A stretch of 64,000 nucleotides of DNA from Promethearchaeota archaeon (GCA_019057865.1 JAHLWP010000007.1:75005-139004), one strand, 5' to 3'. Counted from the stretch's first letter, positions 57,892 through 64,000 are shown. The notes: a model not told the origin generated them from the letters alone. Program-made: numbers and translations.

Positions 57892-58004
57892 AGATAATCA
57901 CCTAATAAAAACTGCCACTATATATTAATAAAGCTTCATACTTTAAAGTCTTAATGGTTGTTATCTAATAAGTACAAACAGATAACTTCAGAATATTGAT
58001 AAGT

Positions 58005-60323
58005 TTAACTTTGATTTAAGATTAAGAGTTTTCTCTTAATTGGAATTGAAACTTTTTCTACACCTAAACCTTTTACGTATTCTACTGCTTCCTCTAATCT
58101 TTTAGGACTTTGATGGAAAAAGCAAACTTCCTTTGGCTCAAGACTTTTTATCATTTCAGCCAACTGATTTTTATCAGCATGTAGTTTAATTTTAAGTTGA
58201 GGAGCAAATGTATTGATTAATAATGCACGAAATGGCATTTTCCATGTTTCTAAAAATTCAATTTCTTCACTTCCCAAGATTAAATCAATACCAGGAGGTT
58301 CATGGATTGAACCTGCCAAAAACACAAGATTGTGAGGGTTACGTCCAATAATATTAATAATATTTCTAATAATGCCATATGAAAGATCAGGAGGATGTGA
58401 GATAATTATATTATTTTTCGTTCTTAGAAAATCTAAATTATTATGATCAAACCATCGAAATTTTATGCTATTAAATGGATTTGCTTTATCACGAATTAAT
58501 CTTGAGATAGGTCCATAAATATATTCATATCGATGATTAATAACTTGAATATTTTTCCTTACCATCATGTCTACATAAATATTGGGACGTTTTTTGAAGC
58601 CTCGTCTTAGTTGCAACTTTCTAAAATAGCGCCAAAAGATTAGCATGAATGTTATAGCTAAACTCGAAGGGTCGGCGCCAATAAGCACATTGTCTTCATA
58701 TTCTGCTTTTTGTTCTAAAAATAGAATCAAACTGTGAAATTGATCTGATAAATAACCGAAATCCTCACTTGCACTTGTTCCATCAATTAAAAGATAATCA
58801 ATTGGTCGAGAAATTTGTTCTAAGAACCTCCTAGTTCCTGCAAAAGGGGTAATATCATGATAAGTATAATCTCCAGTATATAATAATCGAAAATTATTAA
58901 TTTTTGCTAATAGCATCAAAGCTCCTGGCATATGTCCAGCATGAAAGAAAGAAAGGTAACAATTTTTCTCTTTAAATTCTATTTTATCGCCATTTTCTAC
59001 ATAAATTACATTTTTTACAGTATTTTTATATTCTTCTTCTTCAATTTCTTCATGAGTCTCTTGCTTTAAAAAGTTAGAATCCCTTAAGAGAAATAGATCT
59101 AATGTAATTCTTGAGCATAATATAGGGATATCTGGATATAATTCAATCAATTTTTTAAGTCCTGAAATATGATCAAAATGACTATGTGAAATGAAAATTG
59201 CATCAATTTTTGGTTTGTATGGTGACAAATTTTGGATTATTTCATGTTCAGATTCAATTTTCTCTTTTTTTTCTTCTTCTAAGATTAATTCTGGAAGGTT
59301 CTCAAGATATTCTTCAATGTGTTTAAAGTCATCTACTTTTTTACTTATATCAATTTTTTCTTCTTCTTCACCTTCTTGAGAAATTGGTTTAGAAATTCCG
59401 CAATCTAATAAAATATTTAGGTTTCCTATCCCTATAATATGGCAATTGTGATTTGGTTTAAGTACTATTGGATAAATAGTTACTCTAGATTTGGCATTAT
59501 TATATTGAGAAATTGATAAACTTTTAAAATAATCTTGGTTATATCTTTTTTCAATTCTATCAATTGCTAGTGAGATTTCACTAGATCCTACAGGAACTCC
59601 TGTTATATAAAAGTACCATCCATATTTCTTAACCAAATTTTCCAAATGTTCATACATCTTATCCCCAATAAGGGATTTTATAACAATGACCTTCTCTCTA
59701 TTGTAATATATAACATTCCTAATCGCCTTCTTTTCTTTTAAAGGTATATCTTCATATTTATGGAAAAAATCTTCTAAAACTTCTTTAATGGGTACTTGTG
59801 GAATATTTTCTGATTTAATTAATTTAATATACTGGAAGTATTCTTTTGTATGATATAATGGACGCATATTTTCTTTTTGTTTAATTGGAAAAACCAGATC
59901 TTTAAACTGAAAATTAATTTTACTTATCGTTATTTCTTTTTTTATCTCTTCCTTTTCTCTCTTTTTTTTGGATTTTTTTTTCTCAATATCAGTTTTAGCT
60001 ATAAAAAAGAACCAACCATAATCTCGAATGAGTTTATCTCTATTCCAAATAATGTCCTTTCCCGATTTTGTAATAATAATTAGTATTTTATCTTTTGGAG
60101 AGTGGATAATTTTCGTAATTGACTTCTTTGACTTTTCAGAAATATATTTGTTTTTCAAAAAAAAATGGTTTAATACTTCAAAAATTGGTTTCTGAGGAAT
60201 TTTTCTGTTTTCCATAAACTTAAGTTTTTGATTATACGACTTAATTTTATAGGAAGAATCAATTTCTTCTTTTTCTAAAACTATAATTTTTTTATCTAAA
60301 AAAGAAAATTCCTCATTATCCAT
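58005..60323 (-). CDS. MBL/beta-CASP ribonuclease (CPSF-like) with duplicated N-terminal domain
   Basis: LLDCG, SHSHFDH, HAGHMPG, YTGD, IDGT, LHAD, FFHQ. Confidence 0.82.
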   Translation of the reverse strand: MDNEEFSFLDKKIIVLEKEEIDSSYKIKSYNQKLKFMENRKIPQKPIFEVLNHFFLKNKYISEKSKKSITKIIHSPKDKILIIITKSGKDIIWNRDKLIRDYGWFFFIAKTDIEKKKSKKKREKEEIKKEITISKINFQFKDLVFPIKQKENMRPLYHTKEYFQYIKLIKSENIPQVPIKEVLEDFFHKYEDIPLKEKKAIRNVIYYNREKVIVIKSLIGDKMYEHLENLVKKYGWYFYITGVPVGSSEISLAIDRIEKRYNQDYFKSLSISQYNNAKSRVTIYPIVLKPNHNCHIIGIGNLNILLDCGISKPISQEGEEEEKIDISKKVDDFKHIEEYLENLPELILEEEKKEKIESEHEIIQNLSPYKPKIDAIFISHSHFDHISGLKKLIELYPDIPILCSRITLDLFLLRDSNFLKQETHEEIEEEEYKNTVKNVIYVENGDKIEFKEKNCYLSFFHAGHMPGALMLLAKINNFRLLYTGDYTYHDITPFAGTRRFLEQISRPIDYLLIDGTSASEDFGYLSDQFHSLILFLEQKAEYEDNVLIGADPSSLAITFMLIFWRYFRKLQLRRGFKKRPNIYVDMMVRKNIQVINHRYEYIYGPISRLIRDKANPFNSIKFRWFDHNNLDFLRTKNNIIISHPPDLSYGIIRNIINIIGRNPHNLVFLAGSIHEPPGIDLILGSEEIEFLETWKMPFRALLINTFAPQLKIKLHADKNQLAEMIKSLEPKEVCFFHQSPKRLEEAVEYVKGLGVEKVSIPIKRKLLILNQS

Positions 60324-60722
60324 TATTTAATCTTATTTAACAATCAAAAAAACAGTTGCGATTTCTAATAATATAGAAATATAATAAAATTCCTAAATTA
60401 TTCCTATTGAATTTTAATTTTTTAATTAAAAGATTTCATTTTATTTTTTTTCTTCTTAAAAGATCCCATGGTGTCTTCTTTCTTGGAGGAAATTCACATT
60501 TTTTTAATTCAAAAGAGATCTATATTATTTTTGTCCCTTAACAATTCCAAGAGAAAACTCTTCCTTATATATTTAACTTTTAGACCTTATTTACAAATCT
60601 AAGAACATAATTTCAAATAGTTTCTATCAACTTTCTATAAGAAAAATAAAAACTATATCATTTAATGAGTGCTTTTATTACCAATAAAGAAGGTACATTT
60701 AATATATAGATACTTTTTGAAT

Positions 60723-61397
60723 CTAAGAAGAAGAATTTTGCATATAAAATTTTATTAATTTGGCAAGATCTATTGGACCATTAATATTTATTAAACTCAC
60801 TAAATTTTTATCTAGAGGTTGAATAGATTTTTCTACAGAAACATAATTAATTTTCCAGTTTTTATCTATAAAGTTGTATAAACCATAATTTTCTGAGTTT
60901 AAAATTTCCCTAGCTTTATAATATCCTTTCTCAACTGGATAAATTGTAAAAAATGGTTCTAAAAAACCATTATTCCATCTTGGTATGCAACAATCATATC
61001 CTTCAGATTCTTTTATCATTAATTCAATTATTTCTGGTTTAATTAAAGGCATATCACATGATAATAAGAATGCTTTTTCAAAATTTAACCTAAATAATTC
61101 CTTTAATCCAGAATATATGCCTAACATTGGTTTAAAGATTTTTAGATGTTTAAAAATTTCACGATCATCTACAATAAAAGTGATTTCTTTAGGGAATTCT
61201 ATTGATTTGCGATAATTAAAAACTTGTTCTTCAGAATGTGCCACTAAAAAGATATCTTGATCAAATTTATTTAAAGTTTCTATTTGATGTAAAATTAACG
61301 ACTTTCCAAAGAATTCTATAGCCGCTTTTTCAGTACCAAAACGAGTACTTTTGCCTCCAATTAAAATAAGAATCGCAAGGTATTTTGGATTTTCCAT
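60723..61397 (-). CDS. mobA: Molybdenum cofactor guanylyltransferase
   Basis: LIGGKSTRFGTEKA, PMLGIYSG, SCDMP, EP..TIY, NIN.P.DL. Confidence 0.88.
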   Translation of the reverse strand: MENPKYLAILILIGGKSTRFGTEKAAIEFFGKSLILHQIETLNKFDQDIFLVAHSEEQVFNYRKSIEFPKEITFIVDDREIFKHLKIFKPMLGIYSGLKELFRLNFEKAFLLSCDMPLIKPEIIELMIKESEGYDCCIPRWNNGFLEPFFTIYPVEKGYYKAREILNSENYGLYNFIDKNWKINYVSVEKSIQPLDKNLVSLININGPIDLAKLIKFYMQNSSS

Positions 61398-61726
61398 TTT
61401 AGACAGTATATTTATTATTATATTTAGAATATGTAATTGATATAGAAATAAATATTTCTAAAAAAACTTCATTTCAAGAGTTATCTTTTTACTGGAAGAT
61501 TTTAAGGAATTTAGATTTCAAAAGACTATTGAAAGTAGGTGCAACATCTGCTATAATTCATATTATTTTGTCAATAGTTATATTAGACAAGATTCAAATT
61601 TAATCCTACTTGGTTTGGAATTATTAATTCTTGGAGTAGTGGAAATTATATAGTAATAGATATTGAACCCCCTAATGAAATTTATCGCTAATAATTTCAG
61701 ATAATAAAATCTAATTTATTAAAAAT

Positions 61727-62959
61727 TTAATAATAATGATCTGTGGCAGTCTCATCAAACATATATTGAACTCCTTTCTTAAGAGGAGATATTTTCCTTA
61801 ACCTTTGTATTATTAAAGGTAATTTCTCTAAAAAATACTTAACTTCTTCCTCTGTAGTAAATCTTCCTATTGAAACTCTTAAAGAACCATGAACCTCTTC
61901 TGGTTTTAAGCCTATAGCTAGTAATACATGGGATGGATCAAGTGATTTTGAGGAACATGCTGAGCCTGTAGACGTACCAATACCCTCCATATCTAAATCT
62001 AAGACAATAGACTCTCCCTCAATATATTTGAATCCCAAATTTACATTATTAGGTAGCCTTTGAGAAGGATGACCATTAAGATAAGTATCATCAATATTTC
62101 CTAACACAGATTTTATGATTTTATCTCGTAACTTAATTTGCCTTTCAGCCTCTTTAGCCATCTCTGCTTTTGCTATTTCTACTGCTTTAGTAAAACCAGC
62201 AATTAATGGCACTGCTACTGTGCTTGGCCGCATGTCTTTTTCATGCCCTCCACCAAACATTAATGGCTGAATATATTTACCCCACCCTTCCTTTTTCCCT
62301 TTATTTCGTATATATAATAATCCAATACCCTTTGGACCATAAACCTTATGAGCAGATGCAGATAACAGATCAATATTCATCTCGTTGACATCTATTGGGA
62401 GTTTACCAAAAGCTTGAACTGCATCAGTATGAAATATAACATTGTGTTTTTTAGCTATTGCTCCGATTTCCTTAATAGGTTCAATTGTGCCTATTTCATT
62501 ATTAGCAAATATTATAGTTATAAGAATTGTTTTATCTTTTATTGTATTTTCCAATTCTTTAAGATCAATTAAACCAAAATTATCAACCGGTAAGAATGTA
62601 ACATCAAATCCTCTCTTCTGCAATTCTTTACATGGATTTTCGACTGCATGGTGCTCTATAGTAGAAGTTATTATATGATTTCCCTTTTCTTGATTTTTTA
62701 AAGCCACACCCATTACTGCAAGGTTGTCAGCTTCTGTGCCTGATGATGTAAAATAAATTTCCTCTGATTTTGCATTAATCAAGGAAGCTATAGTTTTTCG
62801 TGATTTTTCTAGTAATTGACCCGCTTTTTGTCCTATTAAGTGCAGACTAGAAGAATTTCCATAGGTTTCTTTAAAATGTTTACTAACTATTTCAATTACT
62901 TGCGGATCCATTGGAGTTGTGGCGGCATTATCCATATATACATATTTTGAATCATTCAT
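61727..62959 (-). CDS. iscS: Cysteine desulfurase IscS/NifS
   Basis: YMDNAATT, TSSGTEADN, IEHHAV, HTDAVQ, SAHKVYGPKG, STGSACSS. Confidence 0.96.
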   Translation of the reverse strand: MNDSKYVYMDNAATTPMDPQVIEIVSKHFKETYGNSSSLHLIGQKAGQLLEKSRKTIASLINAKSEEIYFTSSGTEADNLAVMGVALKNQEKGNHIITSTIEHHAVENPCKELQKRGFDVTFLPVDNFGLIDLKELENTIKDKTILITIIFANNEIGTIEPIKEIGAIAKKHNVIFHTDAVQAFGKLPIDVNEMNIDLLSASAHKVYGPKGIGLLYIRNKGKKEGWGKYIQPLMFGGGHEKDMRPSTVAVPLIAGFTKAVEIAKAEMAKEAERQIKLRDKIIKSVLGNIDDTYLNGHPSQRLPNNVNLGFKYIEGESIVLDLDMEGIGTSTGSACSSKSLDPSHVLLAIGLKPEEVHGSLRVSIGRFTTEEEVKYFLEKLPLIIQRLRKISPLKKGVQYMFDETATDHYY

Positions 62960-63267
62960 ACTTGATCTAACAGTAAAATTTTAGTATTATTTTTGTTTTT
63001 TATATAATTTTTATTAAATTTAGAATTTAGATTATATTTATAATTATTTCAATTAAATATTTATATACTCTTAGAGTAAAAATATAAAAATAAAAGAACA
63101 CTCTTAAATGAGTTTTTTTTAATTATCTATCTTATTATCACACAATTCTCTATACTTGGCAATTTAAAATATTTATTTCAATCTATTGTAATATTTCGTG
63201 TTGATTTTATAAATAATTTTGAAGATAATAATGCTAACTTTCTAATTTAAAGAGGTTAGATAAATCT

Positions 63268-64000
63268 ATGGTGGACTATAAAGTATATTTAATAATTGTG
63301 AATCACCCTAATTCTGGTAGAATGTATGTTGGATATACTAGACAAGATTTAGATGTTAGATTGAGTCAACATCTTACTAGTCCTCGAAATGAAGATTTTG
63401 GTGATGAAATTAAGAAATTCGGGAAGGAATCATTTGTAATAAAAGAACTTCAAAGATATGATAATTATCGAGAAATGAGGATTGGAGAAAAACATCACAT
63501 TAAAGAATTACGCACATATGAAGATCAAGAAATTGGTATGAATAAAAATGAGGGTGGAGGGGGTGTTGTAGAACAATCACAGGAAACTAAAGAAAAGATT
63601 GCCGAAGCTAATAGAGGAAAGCGACGTACTCAGGAAACTAAAGAAAAAATTGCTGAAGTTCGTAGAGGAAGGCAACATACTCAGGAAACTAAAGAAAAAA
63701 TTGCCGAAGGTCATAGAGGAAGGCAACATACTCAGGAGACTAAAGAAAAAATTGCTGAAGCTAATAGAGGAAAGCGACATACTCAGGAGACTAAAGAAAA
63801 AATTGCTGAAGGTCATAGAGGAAGGCAACATACTCAGGAGACTAAAGAAAAAATTGCTGAAACTCTTAGAGGAAGGCAATATACTCAGGAGACTAAAGAA
63901 AAAATTGCTGAAGCTCTTAGAGGAAGGCAACTTACTCAGGAGACCAAAGAAAAAATTGCTGAAGCTCTTAGAGGAAGGCAACTTACTCAGGAGACCAAAG
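63268..64000 (+). CDS. GIY-YIG endonuclease with a tandem NUMOD3-like repeat array, runs off the window end
   Basis: GAGGT RBS, ATG 63268: MVDYKVYLII...RMYVGYT..DLDVRLSQH...GEKHHI...GMNKNEGG (VY/YVG, Arg, Glu, Asn of GIY-YIG), then (TQETKEKIAExxRGxxx)n. Confidence 0.85.
   Translation, partial: MVDYKVYLIIVNHPNSGRMYVGYTRQDLDVRLSQHLTSPRNEDFGDEIKKFGKESFVIKELQRYDNYREMRIGEKHHIKELRTYEDQEIGMNKNEGGGGVVEQSQETKEKIAEANRGKRRTQETKEKIAEVRRGRQHTQETKEKIAEGHRGRQHTQETKEKIAEANRGKRHTQETKEKIAEGHRGRQHTQETKEKIAETLRGRQYTQETKEKIAEALRGRQLTQETKEKIAEALRGRQLTQETK
63580..64000 (+). repeat. 51-bp coding tandem repeat, 8 full copies plus a partial ninth
   Basis: CAGGARACYAAAG recurs at 63580, 63631, 63682, 63733, 63784, 63835, 63886, 63937, 63988. 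Confidence 0.97.

Follow-up and report, generated by a model that had tools for sequence, protein, structure and literature searches.

A GIY-YIG nuclease with a long homogeneous NUMOD3 array, probable partner of a HerA/VirB4-like ATPase on a mobile island of a Promethearchaeota archaeon

The gene considered here encodes a GIY-YIG nuclease and lies at the very end of a 64,000-nucleotide (nt) stretch of DNA from a Promethearchaeota archaeon (GCA_019057865.1, JAHLWP010000007.1:75005-139004), referred to below as the window. Behind its catalytic head the protein carries an array of at least ten near-identical NUMOD3 units, followed by an acidic tail. It is probably, though by no means certainly, the nuclease and DNA-binding subunit of a two-gene module that joins it to a HerA/VirB4-like ATPase and resides on a mobile island. 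Known homing endonucleases have one to three NUMOD3 copies, which are diverged, and an array of this kind is a natural test bed for whether minor-groove helix units strung together can tune DNA recognition. The context weighs more than the array itself: a mobile nuclease-ATPase module with apparent cassette exchange on a conserved, putatively docking acidic tail is a candidate for a new archaeal defence or DNA-transfer system. Relative to the literature searched, the new elements are the length and homogeneity of the array, the acidic motif tail in place of a zinc finger and helix-turn-helix (HTH), and the coupling to a HerA/VirB4-like ATPase; no published description of such a nuclease-ATPase module was found in that literature.

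The features of the window that concern this gene, counted from the first base, are the following:

62989..64000, no strand: left end of an accessory island of about 17 kb, which continues as positions 1-16136 of contig C65; defined by the break in homology to the related genome G012.
63206..63215, plus strand: candidate archaeal promoter, TATA-box-like TTTATAAATA, 53-62 nt 5' of the ATG; read from the sequence.
63252..63256, plus strand: Shine-Dalgarno-like GAGGT, 11 nt 5' of the ATG; read from the sequence.
63268..63579, plus strand: GIY-YIG nuclease domain, amino acids (aa) 1-104; Pfam, family profile, and AlphaFold2 (AF2) with Foldseek.
63580..63987, plus strand: eight full NUMOD3 units of 51 nt (17 aa); Tandem Repeats Finder, Pfam and AF2.
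63988..64000, plus strand: first 13 nt of a ninth unit, at the contig end, where the assembly breaks inside the array.

Base 64000 of the window is the last base of its contig (C87), and the open reading frame (ORF) at 63268..63999 on the plus strand accordingly runs off the contig without a stop codon. The start of contig C65 overlaps the end of C87 by exactly 48 nt, and C65:49-533 continues the gene with units 9 and 10 (…MAEAHRGRRHT and …ISEAHRRRRHT), a degenerate eleventh unit and the acidic tail, up to a stop codon at C65:533. The earlier note on this DNA had anticipated that the gene runs beyond the window, and the remainder is indeed found on C65. The minimal C87-C65 join yields a protein of 405 aa with 10 units. 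Between units 7 and 8 there is a single base difference, and further copies may have been collapsed, so that the count is at least ten. A pattern scan found no array units in the other contigs of this genome. The closest relative, G012 (NifS 95% identical at the aa level), joins both outer flanks directly, from which it follows that the end of C87 and the start of C65 are two halves of one insertion. Contig C128 of genome G108 likewise starts inside a NUMOD3 array, meaning that the repeat broke a second, independent assembly.

The identification of the head as a GIY-YIG nuclease, proposed on first reading, is borne out by profile, structure and residues alike. Pfam PF01541 matches aa 6-83 with 29.5 bits (cut-off 22.6), and the head family profile finds the I-TevI catalytic domain (1mk0) in the PDB with E=4e-25. 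In a 28-sequence family alignment (A2), Y7, Y20, G22, R31, E74 and N92 are invariant and H35 is nearly so; Y7, Y20, R31, H35, E74 and N92 align with Y6, Y17, R27, H31, E75 and N90 of I-TevI, and the R27A and E75A mutant chains in the PDB pinpoint two of these catalytic columns. The AF2 model reaches a predicted local distance difference test score (pLDDT) of 87.6 overall and about 85 in the head, which Foldseek superimposes on 1mk0 with a template-modelling score (TM, target-normalized) of 0.74 and a root-mean-square deviation of 2.6 A. Since all catalytic residues are intact and the fold matches, the nuclease looks catalytically competent. The protein thus combines the fold and catalytic residues of the GIY-YIG superfamily with C-terminal NUMOD-type modules. 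Its score against TIGR01453, 'group I intron endonuclease', is 50.3 bits, just below the 56.05 cut-off, which places it outside that subfamily as defined, and PADLOC gives an 'HEase' match of 5e-6. The protein contains no Cys, and the zinc finger and C-terminal HTH of I-TevI are replaced by the acidic tail. No Rfam family, hence no group I intron, is present around the gene or in C65:1-9000, in agreement with the earlier observation that no host intron is visible. The region upstream of the gene is 79-84% conserved in two remnant copies (L127 and L128). Sub-threshold Pfam matches of the nuclease to AcrF31 and to an ISL3-HTH were examined and rejected as spurious.

The acidic tail links this nuclease to a conserved gene pair. 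It is of low complexity, has a net charge of -18 and an isoelectric point (pI) of 4.4, and contains six [KR]D[YF]xG[IL]D (KDYxGID) motifs, which align across five genomes. Of 54 genomes of the genus searched with a tail profile, 7 have the motif tail, and 100 other genomes of the order gave no match. Downstream of the nuclease, C65:640-2586 encodes a 648-aa HerA/VirB4-type ATPase (ATPase-1), with matches to Pfam DUF87 (7.6e-6) and to PADLOC mad8 (1.6e-15) and HerA (1e-12). Its Walker A and B residues are fully or almost fully conserved, its AF2 model has a predicted TM score (pTM) of 0.71, and the top Foldseek matches are TrwK/VirB4, HerA, HerA-DUF4297, Sir2-HerA and HerA-NurA, with E between 1e-15 and 1e-11. 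The reading frame is continuous and colinear with its orthologues, 65-92% identical in several genomes of the genus, and holds no bulge-helix-bulge micro-intron. Among the nine tail-bearing genes, full-length or cut by a contig end, eight are followed directly by the ATPase: the present one and those in G108:C128, L058, G003, G020, G008, G109 and G108:C54. The two genes overlap or abut in G003, G020 and L058. Contrary to what had been supposed from the window, the nuclease gene is not free-standing; it comes first in a conserved pair with the ATPase gene, located on a 17-kb island. The omega values, i.e., the ratios of non-synonymous to synonymous substitution rates, are about 0.42 for the tail and about 0.10 for the ATPase, which correspond to moderate and strong constraint, respectively.

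The sister nucleases in G003, G020, G008, G109, G108:C54 and GCA_019057575.1 are built on the same general plan. A GIY-YIG head comes first, then 17-aa PEWxEKMxxINR repeats (BLAST to the window array E~4e-12, not recognized by Pfam NUMOD3), then one to three helical repeats of about 60 aa, an acidic region and the same C-terminal [KR]D[YF]xG[IL]D motifs, about 14 aa apart. A different protein stands in G018:C60 (L055 318-3566) upstream of a 65% identical ATPase: it has 1083 aa, no GIY-YIG domain, weak similarity to PF18780 'homing endonuclease associated repeat', a long PDIEPVP-type repeat and an acidic C-terminus, and is another swapped partner. Paralogous ATPases, 36-38% identical, are found in G000:C75:145467-147404 (L046), L031 and L033; some carry a fused multi-pass membrane region at the N-terminus (944 aa), and others follow an HExxH membrane protein. 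The family therefore has both membrane-anchored and nuclease-coupled versions.

It is important to note that the tail and the ATPase have remained together while the head has changed. Between this genome and L058 (GCA_019057575.1), the ATPase (C65:638-2554) is 90.9% identical in nt and 92% in aa, and the tail end (C65:285-546) is 84% identical in nt. Nothing 5' of C65:285, nor in window 58001-64000, matches L058, and the two nuclease heads are only about 25% identical. A near-identical tail end and ATPase combined with unrelated heads means that the head was swapped; head-plus-arm cassettes appear, on comparison of these loci, to have been exchanged with a breakpoint inside the tail. In G108:C128 a canonical unit is followed by tail and ATPase as in the present genome, 91% identical in nt overall and about 95% in the tail. 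The NifS of G108 is only 78% identical in aa, and a 91% identical stretch in spite of this points to horizontal transfer.

The pair forms the left part of a mobile island whose empty site is preserved. Homology of G012 to the window stops at about 62988 and resumes two bases later at C65:16137 and onward, 94% identical in nt; the island is absent from G012, which represents the empty site. The island contains the nuclease, ATPase-1, a TPR protein, an NYN RNase with a second HerA-like ATPase, five unannotated small ORFs, a third HerA/FtsK ATPase and an IS630-like transposase, and no housekeeping genes. Families of relaxases, coupling proteins, pilins or integrases were not detected in it, and terminal inverted or direct repeats at its ends score no better than in shuffled sequence. 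Homology of the remnants begins at about window position 63003 (L128) and 63086 (L127), beside different host genes. The remnant in L127 6001-6543 (GCA_019058075.1, JAHLWD010000440.1; protein P0124) has a head 84% identical to the present one, with H35 changed to N; its ORF ends immediately ahead of the array, where a homologue of C65:10016-10276 follows. It is an internally deleted island copy at another locus. Another relative of the head, P0125, is a 54-aa remnant. Elsewhere in the island-less G012 (L125 6656-6965, contig C88) there is a 310-nt ATPase-1 fragment, 91% identical, which is evidence of past presence followed by decay.

The array is the other unusual part of the protein. In Tandem Repeats Finder, 63580-64000 is an indel-free repeat of period 51 in 8.3 copies with 92% matches. 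The Pfam NUMOD3 score is 72.6 bits in seven stretches of the window part (cut-off 20.4), with a further 32.1 bits on the C65 part. In translation the eight full units agree exactly with the strings first read. QETKEKIAE (positions 1-9), R12, G13 and T17 are invariant across them, positions 10-11 read AN, VR, GH, AN, GH, TL, AL and AL in units 1-8, and positions 14-16 read KRR, RQH, RQH, KRH, RQH, RQY, RQL and RQL. The eight units together have a net charge of +12 and a pI of 10.1. A spacing of 17 aa and four to eight NUMOD3 units are common in hundreds of metagenomic homologues, but the units of these are diverged. The lag-17 self-identity over the best 85 residues is 0.85 in the present array. 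The 121 database homologues compared have a median of 0.28 and none goes beyond 0.55; the array is as homogeneous as the earlier note described it. Comparably homogeneous arrays occur only in sister genes of the module (G109, 0.86; L015, 0.68), in which the units are almost identical and lack the variable patch. These are the five units of L085 (G109:C12) and the four of L015 (G046:C129), 17 aa each and of type KDPEWREKMTKINQERA, which are an independent recent expansion of 51-nt units in another head type. Recurrent recent expansion of a 51-nt unit is, in this sense, a property of the gene family, and variability at fixed positions is not; a similar variable patch is seen in one unrelated homologue, P0043.

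Searches for a closer copy of the gene gave little. A full-length or closer copy was found neither in the near and longer length classes of a 5.8-billion-protein set nor in the viral and genome contigs searched. A head search of 1.8 billion representatives returned just two relatives above 41% identity (P0124 and P0125), both truncated, and the relatives closest to head plus array, about 31-33% identical, come from viral contigs. Two metagenome DNA-pattern scans gave 0 matches, and a pattern scan over 54 genomes of the genus gave only G108:C128, with one unit at the contig start.

The variation among the units is not randomly placed. The eight window units have 15 variant alleles, each of which differs from the consensus unit QETKEKIAEAHRGRQHT by one nucleotide change. 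Codons 10, 11, 14, 15 and 16 contain the whole of the non-synonymous variation (11 variants), and codons 2, 3, 6 and 8 contain all four synonymous variants (Fisher's exact p=7e-4); in a simulation, 11 randomly placed non-synonymous variants occupied five or fewer codons with P=0.002. The restriction of variability to fixed positions, noticed on first reading, is therefore beyond chance, and such non-random placement implies that selection has acted since the array expanded. Since then, purifying selection has acted on the helix core (positions 1-9, 12, 13 and 17), and the helix end and loop have been relaxed or diversifying. Within the variable segment the 11:0 ratio of non-synonymous to synonymous changes is marginal against the neutral expectation (an estimate, p~0.05-0.07). 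Positions 10 (A/G/V/T) and 14 (K/R) change only conservatively, and the truly variable ones are 11 (N/R/H/L), 15 (R/Q) and 16 (R/H/Y/L). Neutral recent expansion had been offered as the simpler alternative; its purely neutral version is rejected because the helix core shows synonymous change only.

Units 1 and 4 share AN..KR and units 3 and 5 share GH..RQH, a recurrence that had been taken to imply shuffling of units. The 5' halves of the units resemble those of their neighbours: units 1-3 have GAA and units 4-10 have GAG. A single block duplication or unequal crossover, together with single-nucleotide steps, suffices to explain the recurring units, and special shuffling is needless.

Each unit is modelled by AF2 as an 11-residue helix (positions 1-11) followed by a six-residue basic loop R-G-basic-x-x-T (positions 12-17). 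The pTM of the AF2 model is 0.46, so that the mutual arrangement of the units is not predicted. Foldseek of the AF2 model returned no solenoid or transcription activator-like effector (TALE) match, and a profile built from the units alone matched nothing in the PDB. Matches of the single sequence in the PDB (a designed toroid repeat, E=0.003; TALE chains, E>=0.3) were set aside as artefacts of repetition and composition, not homology. Positions 1, 5, 9 and 12 are variable across the family, according to the alignment consensus, and invariant in the present array.

Several characterized systems help to interpret this protein. I-TevI and I-BmoI (1mk0 and 1ln0 for the catalytic domain, 1i3j for the DNA-binding domain) have the same N-terminal GIY-YIG fold and C-terminal NUMOD3 helix units. 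I-TevI has one NUMOD3 unit and I-BmoI three diverged ones (PMC3664794), whereas the present array has at least ten near-identical units and lacks the zinc finger and terminal HTH; moreover, the gene lies outside an intron, ends in six KDYxGID motifs and is paired with a HerA/VirB4-like ATPase. Enzymes of the I-TevI type recognize long sites and bind in the minor groove in a sequence-tolerant manner (PMC2988022). Unit positions 16, 17 and 8 align with I-TevI His182, Ser183 and S191, respectively. Among the variable positions, 16 is alone in having a counterpart with a known base contact, and His182 is the sole NUMOD3 residue of I-TevI with a base-specific one. In the summary of the co-crystal given by Kleinstiver et al. 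2010 (PMC2853131), the NUMOD3 helix of I-TevI runs along the minor groove, His182 forms two hydrogen bonds that are base-specific, and within the helix only S191 touches a phosphate. That position 16 would face the bases in the only solved example, as summarized there, is real but thin support for tuning of specificity. I-HmuI has NUMOD3 helices on an unrelated nuclease head, showing that the arm is portable (PMC3664794), and differs in its HNH head, few units and terminal HTH.

TAL effectors resemble the array in being tandem near-identical units that differ at a few fixed positions. Their repeats, however, are of 33-35 aa with two helices, form a superhelix in the major groove and have a proven one-repeat-one-base code, whereas the present units are of 17 aa, single-helix, of a minor-groove type by homology and without a fold match; no superhelix of two-helix repeats was found with AF2 and Foldseek. 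On the side of the ATPase, HerA-NurA (archaeal end resection), HerA-DUF4297 and Sir2-HerA (Nezha-type anti-phage) likewise place a HerA-fold ATPase beside a nuclease or effector, and the sporadic, island-borne distribution of the present module is like that of defence systems. The putative complex would differ from these assemblies in having as partner a GIY-YIG/NUMOD3 protein that ends in an acidic motif tail, and in that ATPase-1 has an N-terminal region of about 300 aa conserved only among its Asgard relatives. The best structural match of ATPase-1 is VirB4/TrwK of type IV secretion (7o43, E=6e-15), a system of which no other components are recognized in the island.

Taken together, a nuclease-ATPase module with a NUMOD3 arm is the explanation that we consider probable. 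The N-terminal I-TevI-type domain would cut DNA. The at least ten helix-loop units would form a long basic arm lying along the minor groove and giving extended, sequence-tolerant binding, as suggested by homology to I-TevI, I-BmoI and I-HmuI. The acidic tail, which stays with the ATPase across the head exchange and for that reason is the putative tether, would hold the nuclease to the ATPase ring; more speculatively, it might mask the basic arm until the ATPase engages it. The array would have arisen by recent tandem duplication of a 51-nt unit, through slippage or unequal crossover, with selection keeping the helix core and leaving the helix end and loop (positions 10, 11 and 14-16) free to change. 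As for the role of the module, the likeliest candidate is a function in defence-like or other conflict, favoured by the sporadic island-borne distribution, the swapping of cassettes, the decay in relatives and the similarity to HerA-effector systems.

A number of observations weigh against this explanation. The proposed tether is argued from co-inheritance of tail and ATPase, and DNA binding by the array from homology. A homing-type head at the very end of an island would also fit an autonomous selfish nuclease. In I-BmoI, three histidines equivalent to His182 tolerate substitution (PMC2853131). A 107-nt spacer with a TATA-like run separates nuclease and ATPase in this genome and in G108, and consequently the two need not be co-translated. 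The ATPase orthologue in G010 has no upstream partner, and the partner in G018 is non-GIY and lacks the strict tail motif. The ATPase of G108 (L083, G108:C128:1-1959) has an in-frame TAG at about codon 30 (PENK* compared with PENSL here), either a pseudogene or a sequencing error. A complex prediction for ATPase-1 (alignment A3) with the tail (A4) scored 0.00 and, having been run without controls, counts neither for nor against binding.

Among the other explanations, a free-standing homing endonuclease that acts autonomously, comparable to T4 Seg/Mob or I-TevI, and that would cleave island-free alleles and drive inheritance of the island with the ATPase as incidental cargo, is in our judgement unlikely. 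The NUMOD3 array would then provide a long target site. The I-TevI-like head, the near-threshold TIGR01453 score and the PADLOC 'HEase' match speak for it, as do the place of the gene as the first at the left end of the island with an identifiable empty site in G012, the decayed and truncated copies in other genomes, as expected of a homing-endonuclease life cycle, and the viral origin of the nearest head-plus-array relatives. Nonetheless, the tail end is co-inherited with the ATPase across the head swap (84-91% in nt) and evolves under purifying selection, at least eight loci have the pair, the zinc finger and C-terminal HTH of I-TevI are missing (no Cys, acidic tail instead), and no intron or intein context was found, nor any Rfam match. 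A conjugation-like apparatus for DNA transfer, drawing on the island's ATPases and small membrane proteins, with the GIY-YIG protein as DNA-processing nickase and its C-terminal motifs as a recruitment or translocation signal for a VirB4-like ATPase, would account for TrwK/VirB4 being the best Foldseek match of ATPase-1, for an island composed of three HerA/VirB4/FtsK-type ATPases, unannotated small ORFs and an insertion sequence (IS) without housekeeping genes, for the membrane-anchored or membrane-associated paralogues and for the movement of the island between species. It is a slightly more doubtful proposal, given that the families expected of such an apparatus, from relaxase to integrase, went undetected, that the PEW-type pairs of relatives stand alone outside such islands and that HerA-type defence complexes match ATPase-1 equally well.

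The remaining alternatives concern the array. Following the earlier note, the array could be a modular TALE-like reader, each unit's variable residues setting the DNA that this unit contacts; repeat recombination and point changes would then reprogram the target under diversifying selection. The part of this view that stands is the fixed-position variation (five of 17 positions, 11:0 there) and the correspondence of position 16 to the base-contacting His182 of I-TevI; the invariance here of positions 1, 5, 9 and 12, which vary in the family, and the similar patch in P0043 are also in its favour. The part that does not stand is the architecture, since AF2 and Foldseek give no solenoid, and no evidence for one repeat reading one base emerged, the units being too few to infer any code. 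Moreover, NUMOD3 helices are minor-groove, sequence-tolerant elements with very few base contacts (PMC2853131, PMC2988022), the His182 equivalents of I-BmoI are dispensable, positions 10 and 14 change conservatively, the 11:0 ratio is not significantly above neutral, and the equally homogeneous arrays of G109 and L015 are almost devoid of a variable patch. All this makes a TALE-like reader improbable. A broader form of the idea, that the arm is an evolvable modular minor-groove reader in which positions 16, 10, 11, 14 and 15 set local DNA preference, is a long shot as well. If it were true, gain and loss of units and single-nucleotide changes would retarget an ATPase-coupled nuclease, and head-plus-arm cassettes swapped on a constant docking tail would amount to a polymorphic, reprogrammable nuclease system in Asgard islands. 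Finally, the array could have expanded recently without any function, in a selfish gene undergoing decay, or could in part be an assembly artefact, in line with the contig breaks inside it in this genome and in G108, the truncated relatives and a copy number bounded only from below. This is very hard to maintain, as the frame is open through all ten units and the tail, the catalytic residues are intact, the helix core shows synonymous change only, the differences between units are sufficient to place units 1-7 in order with short reads, and the unit type is seen independently in G108.

Other elements of the island and its surroundings deserve mention. A second nuclease-ATPase pair lies at C65:5569-8482 (locus L023) and comprises a 189-aa NYN-domain RNase (Pfam 4e-9) and, starting 29 nt after it, the second HerA-like ATPase of 771 aa (DUF87, 7e-10). 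The third, HerA/FtsK-type ATPase has 566 aa and is encoded near the right edge of the island, at C65:12709-14409 (L126 4310-6010). The IS630-like transposase is split into HTH and DDE_3 ORFs at C65:14925-15985 (L126 6526-7586). The remnant L128 joins C65:14443 to about C65:16086 without the transposase stretch, which suggests that the IS entered the island later. The deleted island copy in L127 adjoins GCHY-1 and a ThiF/UQ_con/JAB ubiquitin-like cluster. Outside the island, window 58005-60323 on the minus strand encodes a 772-aa metallo-beta-lactamase/beta-CASP-like protein whose N-terminal region has two similar segments of about 130 aa. Compared with the window, G012:C3 carries extra DNA on the two sides of the MobA-like gene, about 1 kb on one (L124 238-1250, against window 60492-60612) and about 3 kb on the other (L124 2155-5120, against window 61518-61578); the nifS neighbourhood is variable on both sides.

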